Counted from the first letter of the stretch, positions 4,080 through 48,049 are shown. The stretch: DNA of 64,000 bases from an uncultured Bacilli bacterium (GCA_934087515.1 CAKOIY010000001.1:3308-67307), one strand, 5' to 3'. The notes: a model not told the origin generated them from the sequence alone. Numbers and translations: made by a program.

Positions 4080-4637
4080 ATGATAAATGTTAATGATTTT
4101 AAGAATGGAATGACAATTAAGGTAGAAGGTAATATTTATACTATAATTGAATTTCAACATGTTAAGCCAGGAAAGGGTGCTGCTTTTGTTAGAACTAAGC
4201 TTAAGAATTTAAGAACTGGCTCTACAATTGAATATACTTTTAATTCAGGTGTTAAGTGTGAAACTGCTAGAATTGAGAGAAAACCTATGCAATTTCTTTA
4301 TGAAAGTGGAGATTTGTATACTTTTATGAATATGCAAGATTATTCACAAGTTGAGCTTTCTAAAGATGTAATTGGAGATAATGTTAAGTACTTAAAGGAA
4401 AATCAAGATTTGGATATAACTTTTTATGAAGGTGAGGTTCTAGGAATTTCACTTCCAGATAAGATTGAACTTAAAGTAACTCAAACTGAACCTGGTGTTA
4501 AGGGTAATACTACTTCAAGTGCTCAAAAGGATGCGACGCTTGAAACAGGTTATCAAATTAGAGTACCATTATTTATTAATGAAGGTGAGTCTGTAATAGT
4601 TTCTACAAAAGATGGTAAATATGTTTCAAGAGCTTAG
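4080..4637 (+). CDS. efp: Elongation factor P
   Basis: The translation MINVNDFKNGMTIKVEGNIYTIIEFQHVKPGKGAAFVRTKLKNLRTG... is the canonical EF-P N-terminus and includes the modified-Lys loop KPGKGAAF. Confidence 0.9.
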   Translation: MINVNDFKNGMTIKVEGNIYTIIEFQHVKPGKGAAFVRTKLKNLRTGSTIEYTFNSGVKCETARIERKPMQFLYESGDLYTFMNMQDYSQVELSKDVIGDNVKYLKENQDLDITFYEGEVLGISLPDKIELKVTQTEPGVKGNTTSSAQKDATLETGYQIRVPLFINEGESVIVSTKDGKYVSRA

Positions 4638-4683
4638 CTCTTTTTTATTCCCTTTTTATTTAAATTTTTAGGAGGAAAAGAAT

Positions 4684-5007
4684 ATGGCTGAAAAAGATAT
4701 GAATATGAGTCAAAAAAAAGTATTTAATAGGGGTGTTAGTGCAGGATACTTTAATATTGATGTAGAAGATGTGTCAGTTATGAATGTAGAAGTTAGAAAT
4801 GTTTATGATTTAGGTTTGGAACATGGAAAAGAAAGGCTTAAAACAAAACAAATAAAAGGGGAACTTGATGATGCTTATAATGCTCAAAGAGAAGGGTATT
4901 TAGAAGTATTAAGAGCATGGGAAAATGATGGAGAAATAGTGTTTAAAGAGGGTGTTAAGACTTTGGATACTACTTCTTTAGGACATGGAGTAAGAGTACA
5001 TAGATAA
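4684..5007 (+). CDS. Small hypothetical protein (107 aa)
   Basis: It has a strong RBS AGGAGGAAAAGAAT-ATG. It occupies the position held by yqhV after efp in Bacillus. I recognise no family for it. Confidence 0.45.
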   Translation: MAEKDMNMSQKKVFNRGVSAGYFNIDVEDVSVMNVEVRNVYDLGLEHGKERLKTKQIKGELDDAYNAQREGYLEVLRAWENDGEIVFKEGVKTLDTTSLGHGVRVHR

Positions 5008-5138
5008 AGGTGTGCCTCATTTCTTAGGAAATGGGGTTTTGTTTTGAAAAAAAGTTTTATAATAATAAGAAAATGTTTGGAAACTTTTTTATTTAGTGAT
5101 ATTATTATATTAGTTTATTATAGAGGAGGGTTTATTTT

Positions 5139-7193
5139 ATGAAGAATAATCGTGCTTTTACTTTAGTTGAAATGTTAGCTGTTGTGGTTATACTTGCTAT
5201 TTTAGTGGGGCTTATTGTTCCTAGTGTTTCTGGTTATATTGCAGAGGGAAAGAAAGAATATAATATATCTTTGAAGAAACAGTTGTTACTTGCTGGAAAA
5301 AATTACTATTCTAGTAATAAAGAGAAGTTACCTACTAGGGTGAGTGTTGATGTTAGCAATTTTGTTACTGCTAAGGAGCTTTCTACTTCTAAATATTTGT
5401 CTAAGGATTTAGTGGATTCTAATAAGAATAGTTGTATGGATGATAGTTATGTTGTTGCAAGGAATGATGGTACTGGTGTTAAATATTATTCTTGTTTGAC
5501 TTGTGGTAGTAAGAGTTATTATTCTGGTGATGAGGAAAAGTATTGTAAGAAAATAGAACGTCCAAATATGAATGGAATTTCTTGTAGTATTGATTCTAAT
5601 ACTGTTAAGAATACTGGTTATTCTGTTACTGCTGATGTAAAATATACTGGTAATATTGAAGAACTTTATACTGTTGATGGACATAAAGTTAGACATACTC
5701 AAGTGCTGAGTACAGATAGTTCTAGTACTAAGGTTAAAACTATAAATATTAGTAATTATGGTGATAATTATGTTTATGTTGGTGCTAGTAATGGTAAGTT
5801 GTTGTGTGGTACTATAACTATTCCAAAACCTAGTGATTATGGTGTTATAAGTAAAGATATGTATTTGGTTGATAAGAGTGAATGTGATTCTGTTCGTGAA
5901 AATGGTATTAGTAAGGCTGATTTGAAGAGTGGAAAATATGAAAAATATACTGGGGATAATTGGACTAATAAGTGTATTTATGTTGATCTTAAATATAAGT
6001 CTCTTAGTTTTAAGGAAAAATCTGTTAAATATAAACGAGATAATGCTAATGAAGATAAGTCTGTAACGATAAAAGATAAGCTTAAATATTTTGTAATAGA
6101 TGCTATTAATGATAATGAAAAGGAACATTCTTGGGTTGTGAAGGGAACTTTAAATGATCCTCCATATAATGAGTCTAAAACTGATTTTAATACTAAGATA
6201 GATATTACTTCTCCTAAGGTTATTGTTAAAAATTCTAGTAATGGTGTTTGGACTAATAAGAAAATTACTGTTGATATTACTGCAGAAGATGAGCTTTCAG
6301 GAATTAGGAAAATAGAGTATTCTATTGATAATGGTACGACTTGGACATCTCTTTCTGTTTCTGGTGATGATAAGAAGAAAACTGCTAAAGTTGTATTTGA
6401 TAATACTGAAAACAAAAAATTTAATATGTTAGTTAAGGCTGTTGATAATACTGGTAATATTGGTAATGCATTTACTCCTATAAAATTGGATGTTACTCCT
6501 CCTAGTGTTACTATTTCTAGTTCTAATACTAATTGGACTAAGAATAATGTAACTGTTTCTAGTACTGCTTCTGATAGTCATAGTGGTATTGAAAGTATAG
6601 AATATTCAAAGGATGGTAAGACTTGGTCAACACTTGTTAATGCTACATCTGGTTCTAAGACTTATAGTAGTACTGTGAATGAATATATGTATGTTAGAGC
6701 TAAGGATAAGGCTGGTAATTATAGTAGTAGTAAGAATACTCTTGTTAGAATAGATAAATTACCTCCTAATTCTCCTTATATAAGTACTATTAGTTTTGAA
6801 AAATCTGTTATTAGTGGTAGACATAATTGTTCGGGAGTTGGTGGTACTCAAAGTAATGTCTCTTGTAATGTATGTATATTGTTTACTAAATATAAAGCAT
6901 ATGGTTTTTCTGCTCCTAGAACATATTCTGATGTTGGTGGTAGTGGTGTAGATTATCAACAAAATACTTGGAACCATAATGGTAATGCTAGGACATACAC
7001 TAGTTGGGGTAGTTCAGCTGGTTGGAGTTGGAGAGCTAATAATAATCATTATATGAATTATGTATGGATTGATTTTGGTTCAAGAGTTGTAGATAAGGTT
7101 GGTAATGTTGGGTATCATACAATAGTACATTATAGGATTTATGATACTGATAAGAGATCTGCTTATGATGCTTGCGTTGATGCTTATATATAA
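5139..7193 (+). CDS. Giant modular type IV pilin-like protein (684 aa), paralogue 1
   Basis: The N-terminus MKNNRA|FTLVEMLAVVVILAILVGL has a class-III (prepilin) signal with Glu at +5. A conserved ~130-aa head with a C...CLTC...C pattern is shared with the ORFs at 45827 and 48050. It also has two tandem ~90-aa Ig-like repeats (TPPSVTISS..W.N.VTV..TA.D..SGI..IEYS.DG.TW) and a Cys/Trp/Tyr-rich C-terminus. An RBS AGAGGAGGG lies upstream. Confidence 0.75.
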   Translation: MKNNRAFTLVEMLAVVVILAILVGLIVPSVSGYIAEGKKEYNISLKKQLLLAGKNYYSSNKEKLPTRVSVDVSNFVTAKELSTSKYLSKDLVDSNKNSCMDDSYVVARNDGTGVKYYSCLTCGSKSYYSGDEEKYCKKIERPNMNGISCSIDSNTVKNTGYSVTADVKYTGNIEELYTVDGHKVRHTQVLSTDSSSTKVKTINISNYGDNYVYVGASNGKLLCGTITIPKPSDYGVISKDMYLVDKSECDSVRENGISKADLKSGKYEKYTGDNWTNKCIYVDLKYKSLSFKEKSVKYKRDNANEDKSVTIKDKLKYFVIDAINDNEKEHSWVVKGTLNDPPYNESKTDFNTKIDITSPKVIVKNSSNGVWTNKKITVDITAEDELSGIRKIEYSIDNGTTWTSLSVSGDDKKKTAKVVFDNTENKKFNMLVKAVDNTGNIGNAFTPIKLDVTPPSVTISSSNTNWTKNNVTVSSTASDSHSGIESIEYSKDGKTWSTLVNATSGSKTYSSTVNEYMYVRAKDKAGNYSSSKNTLVRIDKLPPNSPYISTISFEKSVISGRHNCSGVGGTQSNVSCNVCILFTKYKAYGFSAPRTYSDVGGSGVDYQQNTWNHNGNARTYTSWGSSAGWSWRANNNHYMNYVWIDFGSRVVDKVGNVGYHTIVHYRIYDTDKRSAYDACVDAYI

Positions 7194-7201
7194 AATAAAT
7201 T

Positions 7202-7228
7202 GGTTACTTTATGTAACCTTTTTTTTGG
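7202..7228 (+). terminator. Rho-independent terminator after pilin paralogue 1
   Basis: The stem ggttac/gtaacc with loop tttat is followed by a T8 run. Confidence 0.6.
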
Positions 7229-7285
7229 TTTGTTTTTTGTATAATTTTTATTTTTGTACATATATTTTATCAGGAGGAGAGCATT

Positions 7286-7795
7286 ATGGTTAATAAACAA
7301 GGGTTATGGTTTTTAACTTTATTTAGTTTAATATTGGTACTTAGTATTTATTATATAACCATGCCAAATGAAATATTTAAGAGTGAAGAGGTTGTAGCAA
7401 ATGATAATGATACAAAAGATGATAAAGATACTTCAGAGGTTAATAGTCAGAATACAAGTTATATAGAGACTTTAAAGGTTGAGCTGGATTCGGAAAGAGC
7501 AGAGATTTTGAATACTTTAGAAGAAATTTTAAATGATAATTCTAAGAGTAGTTCTGAAAAGAATAAAGCTTATGAACAGATGAAAGAGATTAATAATTTA
7601 AAAGCTAGTGAGGAACAACTAGTTAAGACTATTAAAGAGGAGTATAAACTTGATGCTTATGTAAAACAAGAGGATTCTAAGATTGAAGTTGTAATTGATA
7701 GTAAGGAACATGATGTTAAATTAGCAAATAAGATAATGCGTACTATTCAGAGTGATTTTAATGAACCAATGAGTATATCTGTTAAATTTTCTTAA
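7286..7795 (+). CDS. spoIIIAH: Stage III sporulation protein AH-like (SpoIIIAH/YscJ-FliF family)
   Basis: The N-terminus MVNKQGLWFLTLFSLILVLSIYYITMPNE closely parallels B. subtilis SpoIIIAH (..TVWLLTMLSLVVVLSVYYIMSPE..). It has an acidic linker and a C-terminal domain ending ..SISVKFS, analogous to ..VAVTFEPSK. Confidence 0.6.
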   Translation: MVNKQGLWFLTLFSLILVLSIYYITMPNEIFKSEEVVANDNDTKDDKDTSEVNSQNTSYIETLKVELDSERAEILNTLEEILNDNSKSSSEKNKAYEQMKEINNLKASEEQLVKTIKEEYKLDAYVKQEDSKIEVVIDSKEHDVKLANKIMRTIQSDFNEPMSISVKFS

Positions 7796-7885
7796 AATAG
7801 GTGTTTTTCTTTCACAATAGTTTTATATGTGTCATAAGATAATATGAAATATAAAACCACCCAAGACCTAGAAAGTGAGGGAAAA

Positions 7886-8095
7886 ATGAGAGAAAAGTCT
7901 ATACTTACTAAGAGAGAAAAGGAAGTTTTTCTATTACTTGTTGAGAATAAGACTACTAAAGATATTGCTTTAGAACTTGGTATAAGTGAAAAAACTGTTA
8001 GAAATCATGTTTCTAATGTTATGCAGAAACTTGGTGTTAAGGGTAGGGCTTCGGCAGTAGTAGAGCTTCTTAAGTTAAATGAAATTACTCTTTAG
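7886..8095 (+). CDS. gerE: GerE-like LuxR-family HTH transcription regulator
   Basis: The translation MREKSILTKREKEVFLLLVENKTTKDIALELGISEKTVRNHVSNVMQKLGVKGRASAVVELLKLNEITL is near-collinear with B. subtilis GerE over its full 74-aa length. An RBS AAGTGAGGG lies upstream. The track's start at 7844 is probably overextended. Confidence 0.75.
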   Translation: MREKSILTKREKEVFLLLVENKTTKDIALELGISEKTVRNHVSNVMQKLGVKGRASAVVELLKLNEITL

Positions 8096-8144
8096 ACATG
8101 TATAAAGTTACATGTCTTTTCATATTGTTTAATAGAGGGATATT

Positions 8145-9059
8145 ATGTTGAGAAGGAAAGCAATTAATAGAATATTTTTTTCTACTATAATATTTTTTAT
8201 AGTTTTTACTCTTTATAGTATGAAATTTGTTGATAAGGTTGTTACTAGTGATAATAGTAAAGATAAGGTTAATGAGGAGATTATTTATACTTTAAATAGT
8301 GATAATTATATATCTAAGACTAGTGTTTATGTGAGTAAGGTTTTGTCCTTGGAGGATAGGGTTAGGGAGAAGTTAGAGATTATGGTTAAGGATAATGATA
8401 AAAATGTTCTTTTGCCTAGTTATTTTAAACCTATTTTACCTCAAAATACTAGAGTTTTGGATGTTGTGGTAGAAGATTGTTTAATAAAGGTATATTTTTC
8501 TAAAGAGCTTAATAATATTAATAAGGAACAGTCTGAGAGAATGATTGAGGCTATAGTGTATACTGTTACAGATGAAAATATTTTAGGTATTGAGATATAT
8601 GTTAATGGGCAGATGTTAAAGTATGTTCCTAATACTAGGAAGGTTCTTCCTACTATACTTACAAAAGATATTGGAATAAATAAGTCTTATGATATTAATG
8701 CTAGTAATGATATATCTAAGGTTGTTATGATGTATTATACAAATGATAATGATAATTATTATGAAGTTCCTGTTACTAAGTATGTTAATGATGATAGGGA
8801 GAAATTAGAGATTATTTTTGATGAGTTTGGTAAGATGAGTTATGATAAGAGTTTGATTAGTATGGTGGAAGGAATTAATGTTCTTGATTATAGTATTTTG
8901 GATGATAGAATAGTTATTGATGTTAATAAGGAACTTAATAAGGAGGAACAGAACTTAGTTTTTAAGTCTATTTTTAGTAATTATGGTGCTAAAAGTATTG
9001 ATCTTTTGGTAAATGGTGAAAAAAAAGTTAAAAAAACAAGAAATGCACTTGAAAATTAA
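8145..9059 (+). CDS. GerM-like (GerMN-domain) sporulation/germination lipoprotein
   Basis: It has an N-terminal signal anchor and a two-lobed organisation. Its size and composition fit GerMN-domain proteins. This is a motif impression only. Confidence 0.4.
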   Translation: MLRRKAINRIFFSTIIFFIVFTLYSMKFVDKVVTSDNSKDKVNEEIIYTLNSDNYISKTSVYVSKVLSLEDRVREKLEIMVKDNDKNVLLPSYFKPILPQNTRVLDVVVEDCLIKVYFSKELNNINKEQSERMIEAIVYTVTDENILGIEIYVNGQMLKYVPNTRKVLPTILTKDIGINKSYDINASNDISKVVMMYYTNDNDNYYEVPVTKYVNDDREKLEIIFDEFGKMSYDKSLISMVEGINVLDYSILDDRIVIDVNKELNKEEQNLVFKSIFSNYGAKSIDLLVNGEKKVKKTRNALEN

Positions 9060-9324: not shown

Positions 9325-9567
9325 GTGGAAAATGGGAAGTGTTTTACTAAACAAGATGTATGTAGTCATGAATTTATAGAACTTTGTGAGGAAACTTCTA
9401 AAACATATGATGGGTATTATTTAGATGTTAAGAAGTATAAGTATGGAGAGATGTATAAGCTTTATATTTGTAAGAAATGTAGTAAGATAGTATGCGTTGA
9501 TTTTAATATTAATGATAGGAGTCCTGTTGTAGAGTTTGAGAGGAAGAATAAAGTTAGGAAAAGATAA
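9325..9567 (+). CDS. Small hypothetical Cys-rich protein (80 aa; two CxxC pairs, possible zinc ribbon)
   Basis: The ORF has a GTG start after AAAAAGGTGA. It contains the motifs CSHEFIELCEE and CKKCSKIVC. Confidence 0.3.
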   Translation: MENGKCFTKQDVCSHEFIELCEETSKTYDGYYLDVKKYKYGEMYKLYICKKCSKIVCVDFNINDRSPVVEFERKNKVRKR

Positions 9568-9652
9568 AGTGTAAAGTTTTGGATAAGTTTTATGTTTTGT
9601 CTTTTTTATTGGTTTATTTTTTAGTAAAATATAATTTTATGAGAGGTGTTTT

Positions 9653-10354
9653 ATGAATAAATTAAATCATGTTGCAATTATTGTTGATGGAAATGGAAGA
9701 TGGGCTAAGGAAAGGGGTAAGTCTAGAAGTGAAGGTCATTTGGAGGGTTCTAAGGTTTTGGAAAAGCTTATTTTTCATGTTTCTGATAATACTGAGATAA
9801 AGTATCTTAGTTTATATGTTTTTTCTACTGAGAATTTTAAGAGAGATAAGTCTGAGGTTGATTATTTGATGAGTTTGTTTATTAAGTGGTTTAAGAAAAG
9901 TAAAAGACTTTACAAAGATAAAAATATTAAGATTTTGTTTTCAGGGAGGAAGGAACCTTTAAGTGATAAGGTTTATAACTCGATGAAGGAACTTGAAAGA
10001 GATACTAGGGATAATAATGGTTTGGTGGTTAATTTTTGTCTTAATTATGGTGGTAGGGCTGAAATAGTTGATGCTACTAAGATGATTGTTAATGATGTTA
10101 GTTGTGGTAATATTAGTGTCTCTGATATAGATGAGGATTTGTTTAGTAAATATTTATATAATGAGCTTCCTGATGTTGATTATTTAATTAGGACTAGTGG
10201 TGAGCAAAGGATAAGTAATTTTTTGTTATGGGAGATTTCTTATGCTGAGTTTTGCTTTGTTGATAGTTATTTTCCTGATTTTGATATTTATGAGTTTGAT
10301 AGGGTTATTGAGGAGTATTATTCTAGAAATAGAAGATTTGGTGGTGTAAAGTAG
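9653..10354 (+). CDS. uppS: Undecaprenyl-diphosphate synthase (isoprenyl transferase)
   Basis: The translation MNKLNHVAIIVDGNGRWAKERGKSRSEGH... is the canonical UppS N-terminus (the DGNGRWA motif). Confidence 0.9.
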   Translation: MNKLNHVAIIVDGNGRWAKERGKSRSEGHLEGSKVLEKLIFHVSDNTEIKYLSLYVFSTENFKRDKSEVDYLMSLFIKWFKKSKRLYKDKNIKILFSGRKEPLSDKVYNSMKELERDTRDNNGLVVNFCLNYGGRAEIVDATKMIVNDVSCGNISVSDIDEDLFSKYLYNELPDVDYLIRTSGEQRISNFLLWEISYAEFCFVDSYFPDFDIYEFDRVIEEYYSRNRRFGGVK

Positions 10355-10426: not shown

Positions 10427-10455
10427 TTGCAATTATATCGTTTTTGTGGTATAAT
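10427..10455 (+). promoter_or_regulatory. Sigma-A-type promoter (TTGCAA-17 nt-TGgTATAAT) for the downstream repeat-protein gene
   Basis: The -35 element TTGCAA (10427-10432), a 17-nt spacer and an extended -10 TGGTATAAT (10447-10455) are read directly. The element overlaps the track's proposed start codon at 10444. Confidence 0.55.
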
Positions 10456-10482
10456 ATGCGCGAATTAAGTGAGGTGTTTGAT

Positions 10483-12087
10483 GTGGGCGAAGAATTGAAG
10501 AAGATTATAGATGATCCAAATCTTTCGAATGAAGAAATTGCTAAGCGTGTTAGGGAGACTTTAAATAAAAATTCTGAACAAGTGGTAGAGGATAAAAGTA
10601 AAGAGGAACCTATTTCTGAACTTGAAAAAGCATTAAGTCCTGAGGAACTTAATTATTTAATTAGTGTTCTTGATGTTAGACAAGGAGATGTTCAAACTAA
10701 TAATATAATTAAAAAACTTCAAGATAAAGGTGTTAATTTTACTATGGATGAGTTAGTTTCACTACTTGATAAGAAAAAAGAAGAACGTATGAGCAATAAA
10801 GAAGAATTTTTTAATGAACTTGAAAAAAGAATAAGTAAGGAAGATATGGAATATCTTTTGTCTGTTGATTTAGATAATCCTGGTTCAAAAATTAGTTATA
10901 TTGCTGCTAGGGCTGGAGTTACTAATTATGAAGTTATTGAGCTTGCTAAGTATAGAAAAACACAAATGAAGGAGTATGAGAGACTTTCTATATATGATAA
11001 GGCCTTAAATGAACAAGATTTAAAGTATCTTATGGAAGCTAAGGATGTTAATCAAGCTGATTATGAGATAAATAATATACTTGTTAGACTTAGAAAACAA
11101 GGTATTGATGCTAATTTAAAAGATTTAGCTAGTTTTATAGAGTATAAGAAGGGTGGTATTGATTTTTCTAAATTTGATTCAAATAAAGAACAAAATGAAA
11201 AAGAAAATACTAATGAAAAGGATGTAAAAAAGGATAAGCCTGTATCAAAAGAAGATTTATATAAAGAATATCTTGAGATTGACAAGAGAATCAATGAGAT
11301 TGAAAGTATAATGAGAGAGGCTCTTGAAACTAAGAAGAAGGTTTCTGATGAGCTTGTTGCTGAAAGGAATAGACTTCTTGATAGAAAAAGAGAATTAGTG
11401 CCTCAAATTAAAGATATGCTTAATATAAATGATAAGAAAAAGAAACCTAGAGATTTAAGTGATTACGTTGAAGAACAAAAGCAAGAGAAAGAAAAGCAAG
11501 AAGAACAAAAGGCTGATGATAATGAAATAGTTAGTGAAAGAGATGGTTCTTTCTTATCTAAGGCTAAAGGTTTTATTGATAAAGTAAAGAATTTATCTAC
11601 TAAAGGAAAGATAATTGGTCTTGCAGGACTTGCTGCGGCTGGAGTAATTACTGCTGGTGTATATATGGCTATGAAACATGGCGATGTTCAAACACTTAAT
11701 GATGCTCTTCATCAAGCAGGTATGCATATTCAAGATGCTGCCAATCAACTTAATCCTGATCCAAGTGGAATTGATCCTAGTACTATAGGGCAACATATAG
11801 ATACTACTTTTGTTTCAAGTGGGGATGCTGCTAATTATGCACATGCGTTAAAACCAATTGAGGAGTATTTTCAATATGATATTCAAAATTTAGTTGATTC
11901 ACATAATAATATTATTCCTGCTCATGGTATGTCATATGATGAATTGATAGAACTTATAAAAAATGGTAATGACATTGCTTCTGTGCAAGTTGGTGGTGAT
12001 GCTGCACATATTGATGGGCATCTTAATATTAATGATATTCTTAATGCATATGATGCAACAGTTAAGTCTGGAGGAGCGGTTAGATGA
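10483..12087 (+). CDS. Novel helical-repeat protein A with a C-terminal TM segment (about 535 aa)
   Basis: It contains three ~50-aa repeats of the type L..EDL.YLM.AKDV.QADYEINNIL.RLRKQG.(D/N)ANL.DLA.FIE.KKG, also present in the ORF at 12397. A charged coiled-coil region follows, then one TM helix (IIGLAGLAAAGVITAGVYMAM) and a His/Asp-rich C-terminal domain. The start is placed at GTG 10483 after RBS GAGGTG, because the promoter overlaps the ATGs at 10444 and 10456. Confidence 0.45.
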   Translation: MGEELKKIIDDPNLSNEEIAKRVRETLNKNSEQVVEDKSKEEPISELEKALSPEELNYLISVLDVRQGDVQTNNIIKKLQDKGVNFTMDELVSLLDKKKEERMSNKEEFFNELEKRISKEDMEYLLSVDLDNPGSKISYIAARAGVTNYEVIELAKYRKTQMKEYERLSIYDKALNEQDLKYLMEAKDVNQADYEINNILVRLRKQGIDANLKDLASFIEYKKGGIDFSKFDSNKEQNEKENTNEKDVKKDKPVSKEDLYKEYLEIDKRINEIESIMREALETKKKVSDELVAERNRLLDRKRELVPQIKDMLNINDKKKKPRDLSDYVEEQKQEKEKQEEQKADDNEIVSERDGSFLSKAKGFIDKVKNLSTKGKIIGLAGLAAAGVITAGVYMAMKHGDVQTLNDALHQAGMHIQDAANQLNPDPSGIDPSTIGQHIDTTFVSSGDAANYAHALKPIEEYFQYDIQNLVDSHNNIIPAHGMSYDELIELIKNGNDIASVQVGGDAAHIDGHLNINDILNAYDATVKSGGAVR

Positions 12088-12396: not shown

Positions 12397-13710
12397 ATGA
12401 ACGAAAATGAAAATTTAGAAGCAAGACTTGCTGATCTTGAAAGACAAGTAGCGGAAATTAAAAATATGATTAGTGCTCAAAGTAATAAAAATTTTGATGT
12501 TTCTGTGTATGAAAATGTTTTAAGTGATAGTGATATGGCTTATTTAATGAATGCTAAGGATGTTAGGCAAGCTGATTATGAGATAAATAATATACTTGCT
12601 AGACTTAGAAAGCAAGGTGTTAATGCTAATTTAAATGATTTAGCTAATTTTATTGAATCTAAGAAGGGGACTAGTACTAAGAATGATGATTCTAATGTTA
12701 GTGAAAAGATAAAGGAACTTGCTAGTAAGTTAACTGATTATGATATGAAATATTTATTAAGTATAGAGAATCCTAATCAAACAAACTTTTTATTTAGTAG
12801 TTTAAATGCTAGATATGGAGCAAGTATTGATGATTTGATTGCTGCTGCTAAATATAAGAATGCACATATGAATGATGTTAAGCTTGAAAGTGGTGTAGTT
12901 GCTGAAGAAGAAACTCCTGTTGAGAGTGATAATTTATTAGAAGAACTTGATAGATTAGATAAGAAGTATGAAGAAGCTCTTGATAAAGGTGATGATGTTT
13001 CTGAAATTAATGGTAAAAGAAATGCTGTGCTTGATGCAATTGATAAATCAAAAGTTAATGAATCTGGTAATGTTAGTAGTGTAGTTTCTGATAATGAATA
13101 TCCAAAACTTGAATCTGCTGATATGAATAAGATTTCTCAAATACTTATGAATGCTAAAATTGGTAATAATATATTAAATCAAATGGCTGAAAAGTATGGT
13201 GTTAATAAAGATGTTTTCTATAAAATGTTTAACTTAAATATGCTTGAAAGGAATTTTGGTTTAAAAGTTGAAAAACCTAATAAGATGCCAGAAAAAATTG
13301 AAAGTGTTGATAGTAAGTATAAGGTTGTTCCTGAACCTTCGATGAATGATGAGGTTAAAGGTGTTTATCCTTTGACTGTTGAAGAATTTAAGGAAAATGG
13401 TGGTTTGGAGCCTGATAGTAGAGGTAGAAGATTTGTTAAGAAGATAGCAAATAGTAGGATTATTAGATTTTTGGTTGACAAGGCTAAGGAAATGCATATG
13501 AAAATGAAGATGAAAAAACAAGATGAAATAAGTTATGAGAGTGATTCTTCTGCTATTTCAGAGAAAAATTATGAAAAAATTCCTTCTAAAAAGGAAAAAA
13601 TGGAGGCATATCAAAAAGAAGTAGAAAAGATGAAGGCTAATGAAAATGAGATAGATGAAAATGTAGCTTTTAATGATGAGCCAGAAATAACTAAATTTAA
13701 TGCTAGATAA
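12397..13710 (+). CDS. Novel helical-repeat protein B (437 aa), paralogue of 10483..12087
   Basis: It shares the DMAYLMNAKDVRQADYEINNILARLRKQGVNANLNDLANFIESKKG repeat with protein A. The rest is acidic coiled-coil. An RBS GAGAGGAG and an upstream TTATAAT -10 element are present. Confidence 0.5.
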   Translation: MNENENLEARLADLERQVAEIKNMISAQSNKNFDVSVYENVLSDSDMAYLMNAKDVRQADYEINNILARLRKQGVNANLNDLANFIESKKGTSTKNDDSNVSEKIKELASKLTDYDMKYLLSIENPNQTNFLFSSLNARYGASIDDLIAAAKYKNAHMNDVKLESGVVAEEETPVESDNLLEELDRLDKKYEEALDKGDDVSEINGKRNAVLDAIDKSKVNESGNVSSVVSDNEYPKLESADMNKISQILMNAKIGNNILNQMAEKYGVNKDVFYKMFNLNMLERNFGLKVEKPNKMPEKIESVDSKYKVVPEPSMNDEVKGVYPLTVEEFKENGGLEPDSRGRRFVKKIANSRIIRFLVDKAKEMHMKMKMKKQDEISYESDSSAISEKNYEKIPSKKEKMEAYQKEVEKMKANENEIDENVAFNDEPEITKFNAR

Positions 13711-16404: not shown

Positions 16405-19008
16405 GTGAAAAGAAAGATTATAATAATGGTTTTGGCTATTAGTTTATTTGTTCCTATTTCTTATGTAAGTGCTAGTGATAATACTTATAGTTTTGATGAA
16501 GTTAGTACGAATGAACTTTTGGATGATAAGGATTATAAGAGTGATGAACTTATTGTAGTTTTTAATGATAATTTATCTAATAAAGCCATTAATAATGTTG
16601 TTAGAAATGAGAATGCTATTGTTAAGAATATTAAGAGGCTTGATGATGATTCTGTGAGTGTTAGGGTTAAGATTTCTGATGATATGGAAACTGCTATTGA
16701 TAGTTTTAAGGATAATCCTAGAGTTGCTTTTGTACAACCTAATTATAAGTATAAAGTAAATTCTGATGCTAGTGTTTATAACAATCCTAATTATCAATAT
16801 CATATTGATCTTATTAAGACTAAAGAGGCTTGGAGTTTAGTTGAGTCTAAGGGTAATACTACTAAGGTTTCTGTTATTGATACTGGTGTTGATGTTAAAC
16901 ATGAGGATTTACAAAAAAATTTGGTTTCTAATAGTAGTTATACTCAAACTGTTGGTGGAATTAAGAAACAAGTTGTGTATGATTCTGATCATCATGGTAC
17001 ACATGTTACTGGAATAATTGGTGCAACTTATGGTAATGGTATTGGTGTTTCTGGTGTTGCTTCAGGTAATAATAATAATTTAGCTAAGATTATGGTGGTT
17101 GGAACAAGTTTTGACGGGGAAAGTATGTATACTTCAGATATTATTGATGCTATTAATTATTCTAAAGATAATGGCGCTAAAGTTATTAATATGAGTTTGG
17201 GTGGTACTGGTAGAGATAGGGCAATGGAAGCTGCTATTCGTGATGCTTATGATAATGGCATTGTGCTTGTTGCAGCATCTGGTAATGACGAATCTAATGA
17301 GTTTAGTTCACCAAGTGATTTTAAAGAGGTAATAAGTGTTAATGCTTCTAATAAGTATAATAAGCCTGTTTATTGGTCTGATTATGGTATTAGTAAAGAT
17401 ATTAGTGCACCTGGTTATAATATACTTAGTACTACTCCTGGAAATACTTATGAATTACTTAGTGGTACTTCTATGGCATCACCAATTGTTGCCGGGGTAG
17501 TTGCTTTAATGCTTGATGCTAATCCTAGTTTGACTCCTGCTGAGGTGTATAATATACTTTGTGCTAGTACTGGTCAAAGTGATTTTGATGAAATGCTTGG
17601 TTATGGTATTGTAAATGCTAAGGAAGCTGTTTCTGCTGCTATAGATGCTAGTTCTTCAGTTGATGTAGATTCTGTATCTATAAAAGATTATGATGCTTCT
17701 TATAGTGCTGATTATGATGCTGTTGTTTATGAAAATGATGATATTTCTTTAGAGGCTTTGGTTAGGCCTGCGACTTCTTTAAAGAAAGTTGAATGGTCTA
17801 GTAGTGATGATTCTATTGCTAAAGTTGATTCTGTTACTGGTAGGGTTACTGGTGTTAAGTCAGGATTTGTTACAATAACTGCTAGTGTTTCTGGTAAGAG
17901 TGATAGTGTTTTAGTTAAGGTTAAGGAGTCTTTATCTCAAACTGGTATATCTATTGTATCTAAAGAAGATTATTCTAGTATTGTAAAAGGTTCTTCTTAT
18001 GAACTTAAGGCTAATATTTTACCTAGTAATGCTACTAATAAAGAAGTTTATTGGTCTTCTAGTGATAGAACTGTTGCAGATATAAATGAACTTGGTATTC
18101 TTACTGGTAAATCTTCTGGAAAGGCTACTATTACAGTTAAAACTTATGATGGAAAGTATTATGATAGTTTTGACGTAATTGTTACTAGTCCTGCTAGTGT
18201 TAAACTTACTAAGTATGCTTCTAAGTTACTTGTTGGTAATAAGTATACTTATAAGGGTTATGTTTTAGATATAGATGGTAAGAAAACTAATGATAAGATT
18301 ATATGGTCTAGTACTAGTGCTAGTATTGCTAAGATAGATAGTAATGGAACTGTTACTGCACTTAAGCCTGGTACTACTTATATAGTTGGTACTGTTAAGG
18401 GTACTGATCAAGGAAATCGTCTTGTTAAGGTAGCATATAGATTGTTTGTTGGTAAGACTAATTATGCTTTAGGAGATTATAATCTTAAAGTTAGAAAGGT
18501 TACTTATAATAGTGTTACTTTGAATTGGAATAAGATTAATGTTGCTAGTAAATATATAGTTGAAAGAGCTATGAGTTCTAATGGTTCTTATGCAAAGATT
18601 GGTGAGGTTACGGGTACTTCTTATAAGGATTCTAATGTTGTTTTAGGTAAAAGATATTATTATAGAATAAAGGCTGTTTATAGTAGTACTAAGTCATTTA
18701 GTTATTCTTATAGTGTTAATGCTTTAGTTTCTCTTGATAAACCAGTTATTTCTGTTACTAATTATAAGTCTAGATATTTAAAGATTTCTATTAATAAAGT
18801 TCCTAGTGCTAGAGGTTATACTATATATAGAGCTAGTTCTGTTAATGGTTCTTATAAGGTAGTTACTTCTACTACTAAGAATTATTATATTAATGGTAAG
18901 CTTGTTAAGAATAAGAGATATTATTATAAAGTTAGGGCTTATAAGGTTGTTAATGGTAAGAAAGTATATAGTCCTTATTCAAGTATTAAGAGTAGGGTAG
19001 TTAGGTAG
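16405..19008 (+). CDS. Secreted subtilisin-like serine protease (S8) with C-terminal Big_2 and fibronectin-III-like domains
   Basis: It has a signal peptide and the catalytic triad context VIDTGVD (Asp), HGTHVTG (His) and GTSMASPIVAG (Ser). Three SKxxxxATVDxxGxVTAxKxGTATIT-type Ig-like repeats follow, then W/Y-rich FN3-like repeats. Confidence 0.85.
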   Translation: MKRKIIIMVLAISLFVPISYVSASDNTYSFDEVSTNELLDDKDYKSDELIVVFNDNLSNKAINNVVRNENAIVKNIKRLDDDSVSVRVKISDDMETAIDSFKDNPRVAFVQPNYKYKVNSDASVYNNPNYQYHIDLIKTKEAWSLVESKGNTTKVSVIDTGVDVKHEDLQKNLVSNSSYTQTVGGIKKQVVYDSDHHGTHVTGIIGATYGNGIGVSGVASGNNNNLAKIMVVGTSFDGESMYTSDIIDAINYSKDNGAKVINMSLGGTGRDRAMEAAIRDAYDNGIVLVAASGNDESNEFSSPSDFKEVISVNASNKYNKPVYWSDYGISKDISAPGYNILSTTPGNTYELLSGTSMASPIVAGVVALMLDANPSLTPAEVYNILCASTGQSDFDEMLGYGIVNAKEAVSAAIDASSSVDVDSVSIKDYDASYSADYDAVVYENDDISLEALVRPATSLKKVEWSSSDDSIAKVDSVTGRVTGVKSGFVTITASVSGKSDSVLVKVKESLSQTGISIVSKEDYSSIVKGSSYELKANILPSNATNKEVYWSSSDRTVADINELGILTGKSSGKATITVKTYDGKYYDSFDVIVTSPASVKLTKYASKLLVGNKYTYKGYVLDIDGKKTNDKIIWSSTSASIAKIDSNGTVTALKPGTTYIVGTVKGTDQGNRLVKVAYRLFVGKTNYALGDYNLKVRKVTYNSVTLNWNKINVASKYIVERAMSSNGSYAKIGEVTGTSYKDSNVVLGKRYYYRIKAVYSSTKSFSYSYSVNALVSLDKPVISVTNYKSRYLKISINKVPSARGYTIYRASSVNGSYKVVTSTTKNYYINGKLVKNKRYYYKVRAYKVVNGKKVYSPYSSIKSRVVR

Positions 19009-19018
19009 GAGGTAGAGT

Positions 19019-20707
19019 ATGAAAAAGAAAATTATATCGTTAGTTTTAGTATGTGCATTACTTATTACTATTTTACCTAGTGGTGTTAGTGCTCTTAGTA
19101 AGGTTAATCCTTCAGAGAAGAAGGAGGTTTCTTTAAAGAAAGTTAATGATAAGTCTTTAATTGTTAAAACTCCGACTGCTAAGCAAATTAGAAAGGCTGG
19201 TAGTGAACTTGATTTTTATAAACAAAGTTTTATTGAACAAGTTGAGGAGACTTATTCTCGATATGATTATGTAACTTATATTGATTCTGTTAGGAAGGCT
19301 TTTGAGAAGGCACATCAAGAGGCTATTGATACACTTAATAATCTTAGTTCTTTAGATGATTTGTTTTATGATTATGAGGAAGGTACTGTTTCTTTAGATG
19401 TTAATTTACCTTATGCTACTATGACTACTATTGGTGGTTGGGATTATGATTATGTTACTACTGATAATTATTATTTGACTTTGAAAAAACGTGGTCTTAA
19501 GGCTATAAATGATGCTTTTGATTGTTTTTATGAAGGGGATTTTAGTACTTATTATAATACTATAATTAATTCTTATCGTAGTGAGTATTTAGGATATGTA
19601 AGTAGTGCTAATGATTATTATTCACTTGCTAAAGGTTTTGCTAATATTGGTTTAGTTGGAGATTATAATAATTTTACATATGTTGATATTTCTTTTGATT
19701 TAGATAATTATAATGGTGAAGATGCTGAATCTATGTCTGGTTCTTGTCAATATGATGCTTATGGTTATTTTCCTGATTTTGAATATGTAGAGTTTTTAAA
19801 TAGTGTTGGTATTGCGTCTATTCCTTCTTATTCTCTTGGTCGTGTTATTTATTCTTTAGGAGAAGTTCAAGATACTAAAAATGCTTTTAGTGCATATATT
19901 AATAATTATGTATATGAACAACTTAAAGCTAGTGGTTATAAGGTTACTGATGAGATTATAGATATGGCTGATAAGACTCTTGATGATATTAATAATGGTT
20001 ATAATCCTGATACTATGTATACTAAGTATATTGATTTGATTGAAAAATTTGAAGATATGACTGGTGTTACTTATCAAAAACTTAGTTCTACTACTACATT
20101 TAAACTTGCTGCTGGTATTGATAAGTTATCTAAGAAGTATTTGGATAAAAAAGTTTATTCTAATGCTGGTTATAATACTAATTATAATCTATTAGATAAT
20201 GCTAGTAGTGCTATTAATGTTGTGTATGAGGTAGAAATACCTAGAAATTTCTTGGTTAAGCTTGAAAAACTTCTTAAGAAGACTCCAACTAGAGTTGTTG
20301 AACTTAGTAATGCCAAGAAGTCATATGCTAATAAGTTAAATACTTTTAAGAATAATAAAAAGTATAATCAAAAGAAAGTTGTTCCTATTGTTAATGAGGG
20401 AATTAGTAAAATAAATAAGGCTACTTCAGTTGATAGTGTTAAGAGTATATATAATACTTATTATAAGAAGGCTTTACTTACTATAAATAAATATAAGATA
20501 ACTACTTCAAAGACTGGTAAGGGTGTTATTACCAAGAGTAAAACTGTTAATTATGGTTCTAATGTTGTTATTACTATGACTCCTAGTAAGGGTTATAAAC
20601 TTAGTAAGGTTTATGTAGATGGTAAACGTGTTAGTGTTAAGAGTAAGTATACATTTAAGAATGTTACTTTGAATCATTCTATAAAGGCAGTTTTTGTTAA
20701 GAAGTAG
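19019..20707 (+). CDS. Secreted hypothetical protein with a C-terminal Listeria-Bacteroides (Flg_new/InlB B-repeat-like) domain
   Basis: A signal peptide is present. The C-terminal motif is GKGVITKSKTVNYGSNVVITMTPSKGYKLSKVYVDGKRVSV. Confidence 0.55.
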   Translation: MKKKIISLVLVCALLITILPSGVSALSKVNPSEKKEVSLKKVNDKSLIVKTPTAKQIRKAGSELDFYKQSFIEQVEETYSRYDYVTYIDSVRKAFEKAHQEAIDTLNNLSSLDDLFYDYEEGTVSLDVNLPYATMTTIGGWDYDYVTTDNYYLTLKKRGLKAINDAFDCFYEGDFSTYYNTIINSYRSEYLGYVSSANDYYSLAKGFANIGLVGDYNNFTYVDISFDLDNYNGEDAESMSGSCQYDAYGYFPDFEYVEFLNSVGIASIPSYSLGRVIYSLGEVQDTKNAFSAYINNYVYEQLKASGYKVTDEIIDMADKTLDDINNGYNPDTMYTKYIDLIEKFEDMTGVTYQKLSSTTTFKLAAGIDKLSKKYLDKKVYSNAGYNTNYNLLDNASSAINVVYEVEIPRNFLVKLEKLLKKTPTRVVELSNAKKSYANKLNTFKNNKKYNQKKVVPIVNEGISKINKATSVDSVKSIYNTYYKKALLTINKYKITTSKTGKGVITKSKTVNYGSNVVITMTPSKGYKLSKVYVDGKRVSVKSKYTFKNVTLNHSIKAVFVKK

Positions 20708-20788: not shown

Positions 20789-22273
20789 TTATATTACTAT
20801 AGCTATTAGATTGTTTGATCCTTTGTTTACTACTTTGGACATTGTTGTTTGAAATTTATATCTTACGTTTTCTGGCATCATTGATATTTTTGATTGGATT
20901 CCTTCTTGGACTATTTTGTCTAAGCTTCTTCCAAATATTTCGCTTGACCAGATACTGTTTGGATCACTATTGCTATCTTTCATTAGGTGTTCTATTAGTT
21001 CTTTGCTTTGGGCTTCGCTACCGATTATTGGTTCAAAGCTTGATTCTACATCTACTCTTATCATATGTATTGATGGTGCTGTTGCTTTTAGTTTTATTCC
21101 ATATCTTGATCCTTGTTTTGTTATTTCTGGTTTGTCTAATTTCATATCTTTTATAGTGGGATTTGCAACTCCGTATCCAGTTGTTTTTACCATTTTTAGA
21201 GCTTGTTCTAGTTCTTTATATTCTGTTTTTGTTTCTTTGTATTCTTGGAATATTTTCAAAAGATTTGTTTTGTTTGTTATGTCTATGTCAATCATTTCGT
21301 TTAATACTTTTTCGAATAGTTCTTGAGGTGCTTCTAATGTTATGGTTATGATTCCTGTTTTAGGATCTACTAAGGACATATAGGCATTTTTTATGTACTG
21401 GCAATTGTTGAAATGACTTATTATTCCATCAACATCACGTAATTTATCTACTTCAATTACACTTTCTTTTATTTTATCTATGTAAGCTTTTTTGACATAA
21501 TGATTTGGTTTTAGGATTCCAATCCATTCTGGTATATCGATGTTTACTTCTAATATAGGAAATTCATATAGAGCTTCTCTTAATATATTATTTATTTCTA
21601 TTTCATTCATATTTAGTACATCTATTGGTAGGACAGGTACTTTGTATTTTACTTTTAGTTCTTCTGTTAGTTTTTCTGTTTCTTTTGCTGTTGGTTTAGT
21701 TGTATTTAGTATTATTATATATGGTTTGTTTATTGAACTTAGTTCTAGTGCTATTTTTTCTTCTGCTTCAATATAGTCTTTTCTTGAGAATTCTCCGATA
21801 GTTCCATCTGTTGTAATCATTATTCCTATTGTTGAGTGGTCTCTTATTACTTTTTCTGTTCCTATTTCTGCGGCTTCAACGAATGGTATTTCATCTTTGT
21901 ACCAGGGGGTTTTTACCATTCTAGGGCCGTTTTCGTCTTCGTAGCCTTTGGCTTCATCAATTATGTATCCTACGCAGTCTACTAGTCTCATGTTACAAGT
22001 CATGTCATCTATTTTTATTTGGGCAACATTGTTGGGAACAAATTTGGGTTCTATAGTCATAATAGTTTTTCCTCCACTTGATTGTGGTATTTCATCTAGA
22101 GCTCTTTTTCTTTCGTATTCGTCTTCTATGTTGGGAACTATAAGTTCTTCTACTACTTTTTTGATAAAGGTTGATTTTCCAGTTCTTACTGCTCCAACTA
22201 CTCCTAGGTAAATGTCTCCGCCGGTACGATAGGCTATGTTTTTGATTATTTCTTGTTTATCCACATGCATCAC
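20789..22273 (-). CDS. spoIVA: Stage IV sporulation protein A (spore coat morphogenetic ATPase)
   Basis: The N-terminus ..IAYRTGGDIYLGVVGAVRTGKSTFIKK..PNIEDEYERKRALDELPQSSGGKTIMTIEPKFVPN..RLVDCVGY is near-identical in pattern to B. subtilis SpoIVA. The length is about 494 aa. Confidence 0.85.
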   Translation of the reverse strand: MMHVDKQEIIKNIAYRTGGDIYLGVVGAVRTGKSTFIKKVVEELIVPNIEDEYERKRALDEIPQSSGGKTIMTIEPKFVPNNVAQIKIDDMTCNMRLVDCVGYIIDEAKGYEDENGPRMVKTPWYKDEIPFVEAAEIGTEKVIRDHSTIGIMITTDGTIGEFSRKDYIEAEEKIALELSSINKPYIIILNTTKPTAKETEKLTEELKVKYKVPVLPIDVLNMNEIEINNILREALYEFPILEVNIDIPEWIGILKPNHYVKKAYIDKIKESVIEVDKLRDVDGIISHFNNCQYIKNAYMSLVDPKTGIITITLEAPQELFEKVLNEMIDIDITNKTNLLKIFQEYKETKTEYKELEQALKMVKTTGYGVANPTIKDMKLDKPEITKQGSRYGIKLKATAPSIHMIRVDVESSFEPIIGSEAQSKELIEHLMKDSNSDPNSIWSSEIFGRSLDKIVQEGIQSKISMMPENVRYKFQTTMSKVVNKGSNNLIAIVI

Positions 22274-47984: not shown

Positions 47985-48049
47985 ATTGATAAAATTTTAT
48001 TTTTGTTTTATAATATTTTATAGTGATAATAGTGTTGGGAGGTATGAGT

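Follow-up and report, generated by a model that had tools for sequence, protein, structure and literature searches.

A lone spoIIIAH gene behind a giant pilin gene in an RF39-like member of the Bacilli, a probable remnant of an ancestrally lost spoIIIA operon

We take the order of genes in Bacillus subtilis to be efp-yqhV-spoIIIA, with efp upstream of yqhV. The yqhV gene is located directly upstream of spoIIIA in that species (PMC517825). In the uncultured Bacilli bacterium considered here, efp is followed by a small ORF, a large prepilin-type gene and then a spoIIIAH-like gene. How did spoIIIAH come to stand in this place, and does the pilin gene next to it have a part in the answer? ORF and family scans of the window (the whole 64-kb stretch of DNA analysed) bore out the places that the initial annotation had given to the first four genes of the locus. 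Together with the two genes after them, they are as follows.

4080-4637, plus strand: efp, elongation factor P, 185 aa (TIGR00038, 259 bits; all three Pfam EF-P domains present)
4684-5007, plus strand: orf107, a family-less small ORF of 107 aa (ORF call; no Pfam or NCBIfam family)
5139-7193, plus strand: modular type IV pilin-like protein, 684 aa (N_methyl and OmpL47-type barrel domains)
7286-7795, plus strand: spoIIIAH orthologue, 169 aa (Pfam, PDB profile, predicted fold)
7844-8095, plus strand: GerE-type LuxR-family HTH regulator, 83 aa, or 69 aa if started from 7886 (Pfam GerE, 73.6 bits)
8145-9059, plus strand: GerM-like protein with an N-terminal membrane anchor and two Germane (GerMN) domains (Pfam Germane, 59 bits, two stretches)

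For efp, ORF calling places the start at GTG 4071, and metagenome gene calls give the 185-residue protein.

The gene at 7286-7795 is a genuine SpoIIIAH homologue, and the initial call of a SpoIIIAH-like protein held under profile search. Pfam PF12685 matches residues 8-159 over profile positions 4-183 of 191 (56.0 bits, cut-off 30.6), while an NCBIfam scan of the 169-residue protein gave no match. A profile built from 25 orthologues and compared with the PDB retrieves B. subtilis SpoIIIAH (3UZ0/3TUF) with an E-value of 2e-8, the whole soluble domain being covered. In the AlphaFold (AF2) model, with a pLDDT of 73, residues 4-25 form a transmembrane helix and residues 27-56 a disordered linker. 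Two helices (59-83, 89-120) come next, then two strands (124-129, 132-137), a further helix (144-155) and a last strand (163-168). The ring-building motif, preceded by two helices, is of the alpha-beta-beta-alpha-beta type, like that of YscJ/FliF. The best Foldseek match of the model is 3UZ0_A, with a TM-score of 0.91 and an rmsd of 1.4 Å, and the next are PrgK, EscJ and FliF.

As in B. subtilis SpoIIIAH, a membrane helix at the N-terminus leads through a linker to a C-terminal ring-building motif of the YscJ/FliF type. The alignment of the two proteins runs over their full length, and in the fold match they are 24% identical. The protein here is shorter, 169 rather than 218 residues, with a much shorter linker. 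Its gene is also positionally orthologous, on the same strand and downstream of efp, although here the two are 2.6 kb apart with inserted genes between them. In contrast to B. subtilis, there is no eight-gene operon and no spoIIIAA-AG upstream; spoIIIAH is thus not the last gene of a spoIIIAA-AH operon, which is a trait of the operon context and not of the protein family. The genes downstream also differ, being gerE and gerM here and, as we assume, accB and accC in B. subtilis. Acetyl-CoA carboxylase is mentioned as lying downstream (PMC7924749).

The initial annotation had reported that spoIIIAA-AG are missing, and a Pfam scan of every ORF of 100 aa or more across the 64-kb window indeed found none of them. 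The sole T2SSE ATPase in the window, a 566-residue protein of the GspE/PilB type (54883-56583, minus strand; 474 and 455 bits), was considered as a candidate SpoIIIAA and rejected, as it does not match the SpoIIIAA model.

The synteny of relatives, a check that had been proposed with the initial annotation, was read from the best 80 loci, from 80 species of RF39-like uncultured Bacilli, out of more than 585 species with a relative. In none of these 80 loci is yqhV or spoIIIAA-AG found upstream of spoIIIAH. The genes that occupy this position in the sampled contexts include those for FabG, methionine gamma-lyase, DUF5684, ThrRS, LysRS and DUF4143, as well as spoIIGA-sigE. In 10 of the 80 (L008, L013, L014, L020, L024, L026, L039, L054, L075 and L076), efp lies directly before spoIIIAH, at 57-93 bp, and these ten loci fall in both halves of the tree of SpoIIIAH and GerM, that is, in both major clades. 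Since spoIIIAA-AG are upstream in none of the 80 loci and efp abuts spoIIIAH in both clades, the body of the operon appears to have been deleted in an ancestor. On this comparative evidence, the loss of yqhV-spoIIIAA-AG appears ancestral to an order-level clade, and the efp-spoIIIAH adjacency appears to be the ancestral state within it. The spoIIIAA-AG genes are presumably absent from the rest of the genome as well.

We therefore consider it probable that spoIIIAH is the sole survivor of an efp-yqhV-spoIIIAA..AH block, the rest having been lost in place in an ancestor, and that orf107 and the pilin gene came in by a later and unrelated insertion. The earlier proposal that the channel genes were lost and a pilin gene inserted stands in outline but not as one event, for the loss and the insertion would be unrelated and separated by a long time. 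The notion that the pilin gene occupies the operon's slot as a replacement is contradicted by the 80 loci, none with spoIIIAA-AG upstream, and by the pilin gene being the later arrival.

The boundaries of the insertion and the signals that flank its genes are as follows.

4628-4650, plus strand: efp terminator hairpin, AAGAGCTTAGCTCTT followed by a T-run (terminator scan)
4651-7232, plus strand: region within the ancestral efp-spoIIIAH spacer, about 2.6 kb, carrying orf107 and the pilin gene (junction alignment, synteny, tree; boundaries approximate, to about 10 bp)
5014-5037: strong terminator 3' of orf107 (terminator scan)
5077-5105, plus strand: sigma-70-like promoter candidate of the pilin gene, TTGGAA-17-TATTAT with TG upstream (consensus match only)
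7202-7226, plus strand: intrinsic terminator of the pilin gene, GGTTACTTTATGTAACC then T8 (terminator scan, sequence reading)
7239-7266, plus strand: candidate sigma-E-type promoter of spoIIIAH, GTATAAT-N13-CATATATT (motif)
8094-8117: terminator-like hairpin after the gerE-type gene (terminator scan)

In L008, L013 and L020, where spoIIIAH comes directly after efp, one half of the uninterrupted spacer aligns with the 3' end of efp and its terminator in the window, and the other half with the candidate promoter and the ribosome-binding site of spoIIIAH. The efp terminator is the left edge of the ancestral spacer, and orf107 and the pilin gene sit in what relatives have as an intergenic spacer of about 60 bp. 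The two genes thus appear to be a late insertion, unrelated to the loss of the operon. Weakly similar small ORFs are found in the orf107 slot of L010, L015 and L018, and orf107 has a dN/dS of 0.23 against L007. Among the best 80 of more than 585 species, the giant pilin gene, in turn, precedes spoIIIAH only in the window species and in two close relatives, L007 and L016. Locus L008 has no pilin gene, yet it is placed between L016 and the window species in the neighbor-joining tree, which calls for either an additional loss or two insertions.

The reading of orf107 as yqhV-like was rejected. YqhV is the small membrane protein encoded upstream of spoIIIA in Bacillus, whereas orf107 has no match to any Pfam or NCBIfam family and lacks the long hydrophobic stretch expected of a membrane protein, so that both family match and topology fail.

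We propose the following course of events. In the ancestor of the RF39-like clade of gut Bacilli, yqhV and spoIIIAA-AG would have been deleted in place, so that only some 60 bp came to separate efp from spoIIIAH, itself beside gerE and gerM in what became a conserved triad. The spacer would have gained DNA much later, in the line leading to this species, probably orf107 first and the modular pilin gene second. The mother cell would produce SpoIIIAH, whose gene would have a sigma-E-type promoter of its own. The protein would be anchored through its N-terminal helix, and its ring-building-motif domain would pair with SpoIIQ of the forespore across the intermembrane space, with GerM helping. The outcome would be a minimal Q-AH(-GerM) complex, without the ATPase and membrane components of AA-AG, as in the spore-forming Erysipelotrichia. 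SpoIIQ is the presumed partner of SpoIIIAH here; a Pfam scan for it found no M23 protein in the 64-kb window.

Such reduction has precedents. In spore-forming Erysipelotrichia, SpoIIQ and SpoIIIAH are all that is left of the nine-gene complex, and GerM is kept as well (bioRxiv 10.1101/2022.02.25.481979). Among the nine SpoIIQ-SpoIIIA genes, seven have disappeared from [Clostridium] innocuum and Erysipelatoclostridium ramosum, which keep SpoIIIAH, SpoIIQ and GerM. These organisms belong to a related lineage within the GTDB Bacilli, whereas the host here is an uncultured small-genome RF39-like bacterium. The Planococcaceae, Lysinibacillus sphaericus and relatives, are proven spore-formers that have also undergone lineage-wide streamlining of SpoIIIA-SpoIIQ (bioRxiv 10.1101/2022.02.25.481979), but they keep SpoIIIAC, AE, AG, AH and Q and lack GerM, whereas here only AH is seen, with GerM adjacent. 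The orphan state of spoIIIAH is thus not new, having been published for the Erysipelotrichia (bioRxiv 10.1101/2022.02.25.481979), and the lone spoIIIAH here is a real but ordinary feature, its loss of partners already described for the wider lineage. In the literature on these reduced systems, we found no mention of the efp-spoIIIAH scar or of the spoIIIAH-gerE-gerM triad.

Further sporulation genes had been named in the initial annotation, with mixed outcome. SpoIVA is present at full length (TIGR02836 equivalog, 663 bits, cut-off 460), and the gerE-like gene is that of the triad. A cotD-like gene does exceed its cut-off (27.5 bits against 22), but the match is short, and the spoVB-like gene reaches 141 bits against 372 and is only a generic MurJ/Wzx-type flippase. 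The window also holds a YlbJ-like gene, below the curated cut-off.

It is improbable, in our judgment, that the lineage is asporogenous, with the triad decaying or repurposed for a vegetative envelope function. The clade has no cultured member, its genomes are reduced, the SpoVB-like and YlbJ-like proteins fall below curated cut-offs, the CotD-like match is short, and many Spo0A-positive Firmicutes are asporogenous (bioRxiv 10.1101/2022.02.25.481979). Decay, however, is at odds with the strong purifying selection on SpoIIIAH (dN/dS 0.05-0.13) and on the GerM-like gene (0.15), the pilin gene being less constrained (0.39). It also sits poorly with the retention of the triad in about 78 of the best 80 loci, with relatives in more than 585 species, with the SpoIVA match, and with the spoIIGA-like and sigE-like genes that adjoin spoIIIAH in L012 and L051. 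RF39 is predicted to sporulate, with spoIIQ and 'spoIIAH' present (Field et al., PMC10868615), and in an egg-surface transplant experiment, RF39 sequence variants and spore-formers were transferred together (PMC7028958). Repurposing, as distinct from decay, may have occurred, but this uncultured lineage probably sporulates.

It is very unlikely that this spoIIIAH is a paralogue encoding an extra ring protein, with an intact spoIIIAA-AH operon elsewhere. The window spans only 64 kb of the genome, and nothing else speaks for this reading. Against it, the position directly downstream of efp, seen in many relatives, is the ancestral position of the operon's last gene, and the N-terminal helix and ring-building motif align end to end with those of B. 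subtilis SpoIIIAH. The Erysipelotrichia, a sister lineage, are documented without AA-AG (bioRxiv 10.1101/2022.02.25.481979), and the genes that RF39 has over the Erysipelotrichales are listed with spoIIQ and spoIIIAH and without spoIIIAA-AG (Field et al., PMC10868615). The genus CAG-822, to which locus L055 belongs, is part of RF39 (PMC8035907).

There remains the pilin gene under the preferred reading of ancestral loss and later insertion. The N-terminus of its product, MKNNRA directly before FTLVEM, is that of a prepilin (N_methyl, 28.5 bits, cut-off 21.2). In a class III signal peptide, the leader is short and basic, positions -1, +1 and +5 are G or A, F and E, respectively, and the helix is hydrophobic; here it reads MKNNRA followed by FTLVEMLAVVVILAILVGLIV (TIGR02532, 22.2 bits, cut-off 16.3). 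After it come a pilin head, two OmpL47-type beta-barrel domains (54.6 bits, cut-off 40) and a Cys-rich C-terminal domain for which a domain scan found no known family. The 684-residue protein has two paralogues in the window: the product of 48023-49732, to which it is 37% identical across 470 aa, and, in its N-terminal region, the product of 45827-47956. With its own promoter-like site and terminator, the gene would be a self-contained unit, related to these two other giant pilin genes of the window. Streptococcus sanguinis PilB and PilC are modular type IV pilins of Gram-positive bacteria, and large domain-grafted pilins can act as adhesins. The putative pilin here likewise joins extra domains to a class III signal peptide and pilin head, but its modules are OmpL47-type barrels and the Cys-rich domain. 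The pilin evolves fast, like a surface adhesin, with 75 alleles in one 90% cluster besides its dN/dS of 0.39.

The pilin gene and spoIIIAH are probably transcribed separately, from their own promoter-like sites. Whichever gene comes first, about 35 of 79 loci have a CATA[CT]A.T-type motif at a distance of 26-35 nt from the spoIIIAH ATG, and 37 of 79 have it anywhere in the 100 nt upstream; more distant clades have another -10-like motif, TAATATAAT. Judging by the B. subtilis consensus, sigma-E may control spoIIIAH, but the motif is short and rich in AT, and the genome has only 29% GC.

Could a type IV pilus-like filament or machinery have replaced SpoIIIAA-AG as the partner of SpoIIIAH, and would that explain the pilin gene next to it? 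SpoIIIAA is PilB-like and SpoIIIAB GspF-like, and this lineage keeps a PilB-type ATPase and many pilins, although neither PilC nor PilD was seen in the 64-kb window. In addition, there are three separate settings in which the gene directly before spoIIIAH encodes a pilin: the giant pilin gene; a solitary gene for a 128-132-residue pilin in 10 CAG-822-like loci, still nearby after inversion in L029, L035 and L073; and a gene for a 172-residue pilin in L071. The enrichment is weak, with pilins in 3 of about 33 distinct upstream contexts against a background of 2.3% pilin-like ORFs (P about 0.04, post hoc). The coupling of a ring to a pilus, raised in the initial annotation, finds no real support and is extremely unlikely, because the pilin gene is terminated before spoIIIAH, the motif before spoIIIAH stays constant, and most relatives (63 of 76 loci) have no pilin gene there, the fast evolution of the pilin and the ancestral efp-spoIIIAH arrangement pointing the same way.

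The genes and signals from efp to gerM are arranged as follows.

4080-4637, + strand, efp, with three of three Pfam EF-P domains and a TIGR00038 match of 259 bits
4628-4642, + strand, terminator-like hairpin of efp
4684-5007, + strand, orf107, encoding 107 aa, without a family match
5014-5037, + strand, terminator-like hairpin of orf107, with a 10-bp stem
5077-5105, + strand, candidate sigma-70-like site of the pilin gene
5139-7193, + strand, giant pilin gene, encoding 684 aa with the prepilin signal MKNNRA|FTLVEM (N_methyl 28.5 bits, cut-off 21.2)
7202-7218, + strand, terminator-like hairpin of the pilin gene, followed by T8
7286-7795, + strand, spoIIIAH, encoding 169 aa (Pfam SpoIIIAH 56 bits, cut-off 30.6)
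7844-8095, + strand, gene for a GerE-type HTH protein
8094-8117, + strand, terminator-like hairpin of gerE
8145-9059, + strand, GerM-like gene, with two Germane domains

The order efp, 107-aa ORF, pilin gene and SpoIIIAH-like gene, as read in the initial annotation, is real: ten independent metagenome contigs of this species show an identical succession from efp to gerM. The description of the small gene after efp as yqhV-like did not hold, as orf107 has no match in Pfam or NCBIfam and no long hydrophobic stretch. Two beta-barrel domains of OmpL47 type (54.6 bits, cut-off 40) are also present in the giant pilin. The window has a GC content of 29%, and almost all of its genes lie on the + strand. 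Its GC skew is very strong and uniform over 1-64000 (+0.27 to +0.51 in 2-kb windows), with a sole dip, to 0.095, at 20-22 kb, the site of the minus-strand spoIVA.

The 169-aa protein is SpoIIIAH, as judged from the Pfam match, a profile search and the model fold. A profile built from 25 orthologues matches the B. subtilis SpoIIIAH structures 3UZ0 (E 2e-8) and 3TUF (3e-7) over the entire soluble domain. The ORF thus withstands the profile search that the initial annotation had named as a possible refutation. In the AlphaFold model (pLDDT 73), an N-terminal membrane helix, residues 4-25, is followed by a disordered linker, two long helices and an alpha-beta-beta-alpha-beta unit. The best Foldseek matches of the model are 3UZ0_A and 3UZ0_C, with a TM-score of 0.91-0.93 on the target and an rmsd of 1.2-1.4 Å; next come the ring-building motifs of PrgK, EscJ and FliF.

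The reported lack of spoIIIAA-AG in the window was borne out. None of the window's ORFs of 100 aa or more matched a SpoIIIA component in Pfam, nor did the relevant ones in NCBIfam. The window's only secretion-type ATPase, 566 aa at 54883-56583 on the - strand, was considered as a stand-in for SpoIIIAA and set aside, being a full GspE/PilB-type protein (474 and 455 bits) that does not match the SpoIIIAA model. At its C terminus it has about 175 additional residues. Neither PilC nor PilD turned up in the 64-kb window.

With one genome scanned per species, a relative of the window's SpoIIIAH turned up in more than 585 species, and the best 80 loci were retained for comparison. Their titles name uncultured Bacilli, Tenericutes or Mycoplasma MAGs, and "Firmicutes bacterium CAG:822" is among them; the genus CAG-822 belongs to the order RF39 by GTDB (PMC8035907). 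When the window proteins were mapped onto these 80 loci, the spoIIIAH-gerE-gerM triad (7286-9059 in the window) proved to be conserved in about 78. The gene 5' of spoIIIAH is highly variable, with about 33 distinct contexts, and no spoIIIA gene lies upstream of spoIIIAH in any context sampled. The sampled neighbors include FabG, methionine gamma-lyase, a DUF5684 zinc-ribbon protein, ThrRS, LysRS, a DUF4143 ATPase and a pair of spoIIGA-like and sigE-like genes. The first three of these, which stand between efp and spoIIIAH in four loci (L038, L063, L064 and L082) and encode 245, 410 and 217 aa, were candidates for diverged spoIIIA genes; their identities exclude this. In ten of the 80 loci (L008, L013, L014, L020, L024, L026, L039, L054, L075 and L076), efp lies directly 5' of spoIIIAH, with a gap of 57-93 bp. 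These ten occur in both major clades of a neighbor-joining tree of concatenated SpoIIIAH and GerM.

The B. subtilis order is efp-yqhV-spoIIIAA...AH, with efp upstream of yqhV. That yqhV is immediately 5' of spoIIIA in B. subtilis is documented (PMC517825). Set against that order, the efp-spoIIIAH adjacency of the relatives is most simply read as the scar of a clean deletion: yqhV-spoIIIAA-AG would have been removed in place in the ancestor of the entire clade, leaving efp adjoining spoIIIAH. In B. subtilis, gerE and gerM are also near each other, in the order gerE-ysmB-racE-gerM, and the triad may therefore represent two collapsed ancestral blocks that became joined. The spoIIGA-like and sigE-like pair lies directly upstream of spoIIIAH in two loci (L012, 8482-9952; L051, 8465-9941), where the best matches are to SigE at 317-324 bits (cut-off 339) and SpoIIGA at 90-145 bits (cut-off 210). 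In a third, L030, a pair called from ORF sizes only is one gene farther away (7582-9055).

For this part of the tree, an orphan spoIIIAH is already known from the literature on Erysipelotrichia and RF39. Galperin and colleagues, whose study includes the spore-formers [Clostridium] innocuum and Erysipelatoclostridium ramosum, found that SpoIIQ and SpoIIIAH are the sole members of the nine-gene complex left in spore-forming Erysipelotrichia, with GerM also retained (bioRxiv 10.1101/2022.02.25.481979), and a second study reports most of spoIIIA missing in Erysipelotrichia (PMC7924749). Field and colleagues predict RF39 to be spore-forming and list spoIIQ and "spoIIAH", evidently spoIIIAH; spoIIIAA-AG do not figure among the genes that they list for RF39 in addition to those of the Erysipelotrichales (PMC10868615). 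An egg-surface transplant experiment carried over RF39 sequence variants along with spore-formers (PMC7028958), which is weak, indirect support for sporulation. The clade-wide loss of the operon body thus resembles that already described for related lineages. From the synteny argument and this literature, the genome as a whole seems to lack spoIIIAA-AG and to have spoIIQ, and of the sporulation "feeding tube" the window lineage seems to have kept no more than the SpoIIQ-SpoIIIAH(-GerM) core. The known cases thereby gain a large gut lineage of uncultured bacteria with small genomes, and the finding supports the published view that some sporulation programs can do without SpoIIIAA-AG. Two by-products should be of use, namely a deletion scar pointing to removal of the operon body in place, and a conserved triad that offers a handy marker of sporulation potential in RF39-like MAGs.

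The other sporulation genes cited in the initial annotation stand in part. The GerE-type HTH gene and the first of the following features are borne out, the second is a short match, and the "spoVB-like" gene encodes just a generic flippase.

20789-22273, - strand, full-length spoIVA (TIGR02836 663 bits, cut-off 460)
36122-36463, short CotD-like match
59236-60183, - strand, YlbJ-like sporulation membrane protein (210 bits, under the cut-off of 305)

The junctions of the pilin gene suggest how it came to lie here. Intact efp-spoIIIAH spacers of three loci (L008, L013 and L020) were aligned with the window. The left half of the spacer matches 4596-4650, the efp 3' end and terminator, and the right half matches 7233-7291, where the promoter-like motif, the RBS and the start codon lie; between them lie about 2.6 kb, roughly 4651-7232. 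Among the best 80 loci, a giant pilin is found at this position only in the window species, L007 and L016. L007 has a SpoIIIAH that is 98% identical and a pilin that is 86% identical, and L016 has a 591-aa version, 37-41% identical, with the C-terminal domain in common. In L008, the closest other relative, efp directly adjoins spoIIIAH. Small ORFs with weak similarity to orf107 fill the corresponding slot in L010, L015 and L018, so that orf107 has probably been in the spacer for longer than the pilin gene. On this evidence the giant pilin gene is a recent arrival, inserted as a self-contained unit into the efp-spoIIIAH spacer that the deletion had left. To say that it occupies the operon slot is misleading, as the operon body would have been lost long before and clade-wide. 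The proposal that the channel genes were lost or relocated with a pilin gene inserted is right as to loss and insertion; as a single event it fails, since the loss appears ancient and the insertion recent.

The signals around the pilin gene bear on whether it acts with spoIIIAH. Terminator-like hairpins with T-runs lie 3' of four genes, efp, orf107, the giant pilin gene and gerE; the scanned 5.9-kb region has seven terminator-like sites against 1.1 expected. Upstream of spoIIIAH, the window has GTATAAT-N13-CATATATT at 7239-7266, which resembles the B. subtilis sigma-E consensus, though the motif is short and the DNA AT-rich. In about 35 of 79 loci a CATA[CT]A.T motif occurs 26-35 nt 5' of the spoIIIAH start codon, regardless of the upstream gene; 37 of 79 have it at some point within the 100 nt searched. 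We infer a promoter-like motif of sigma-E type. Given the hairpin after the pilin gene, the pilin's own candidate site and spoIIIAH's own motif, the two genes look like separate transcription units.

The initial annotation had also raised the idea that a SpoIIIAH ring is coupled to a pilus. Type IV pilus components would then have been recruited to the SpoIIIAH/GerM platform in RF39-like reduced sporulators without SpoIIIAA-AG, a pilin-type filament and a PilB-type ATPase taking the place of the ATPase and membrane components that the mother-cell-to-forespore channel has lost. Such recruitment strikes us as very improbable. Pilin genes do lie directly 5' of spoIIIAH in three independent arrangements among the roughly 33 upstream contexts. 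Besides the giant pilin, a solitary 128-132-aa prepilin gene is directly upstream in ten loci, including the CAG-822 locus L055; the nine in the tree cluster together, and the gene is conserved throughout this CAG-822-like family.

L025, L028, L034, L041, L044, L048, L053, L055, L085, ~9400-9950 in most, solitary prepilin

In L029, L035 and L073 an inversion has put the prepilin gene on the opposite strand, still no more than 2 kb away, and in L071 a 172-aa pilin takes the position next to spoIIIAH (9415-9933). Pilin-like ORFs make up 39 of the 1215 in the loci, or 2.3% with the adjacent ones removed; against this background, three arrangements in about 33 contexts exceed chance weakly (P ~0.04, a post hoc estimate). 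Against a functional link stand the terminator separating the giant pilin gene from spoIIIAH, the promoter-like motif of spoIIIAH's own and the 63 of 76 loci with no pilin, and we would give such a link scarcely any credence. The giant pilin is not part of the sporulation story.

Comparison of the window with L007, L008 and L016 gave dN/dS values of 0.05-0.13 for spoIIIAH, 0.15 for gerM, 0.23 for orf107 and 0.39 for the pilin gene. These ratios indicate strong constraint on spoIIIAH. For the pilin, one cluster at 90% identity comprises 75 distinct sequences, and the protein behaves like a variable surface protein; its separate importance is that of a rapidly evolving protein on the surface of a gut symbiont. 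Two other giant pilin genes, at 45827-47956 (709 aa) and 48023-49732 (569 aa), are its paralogues. A weak third N_methyl protein, of 229 aa, is encoded at 58563-59252.

Strain-level variation is seen just 3' of gerM and the tRNA genes (L001, 12067-17443; L003, 12431-13822; L090, 8430-9821). One metagenome variant has an integrase and a Mob_Pre mobilizable element, and others have an additional 463-aa ORF between orf80 and uppS. Downstream of uppS, 10444-12087 and 12397-13710 encode partly paralogous proteins of 547 and 437 aa with internal repeats and no Pfam family, both conserved in close relatives. After an 867-aa subtilase with three Big_2 domains (16405-19008) comes a 562-aa protein that has an InlB B-repeat-like domain (19019-20707); the two, adjoining spoIVA, are likely surface proteins.
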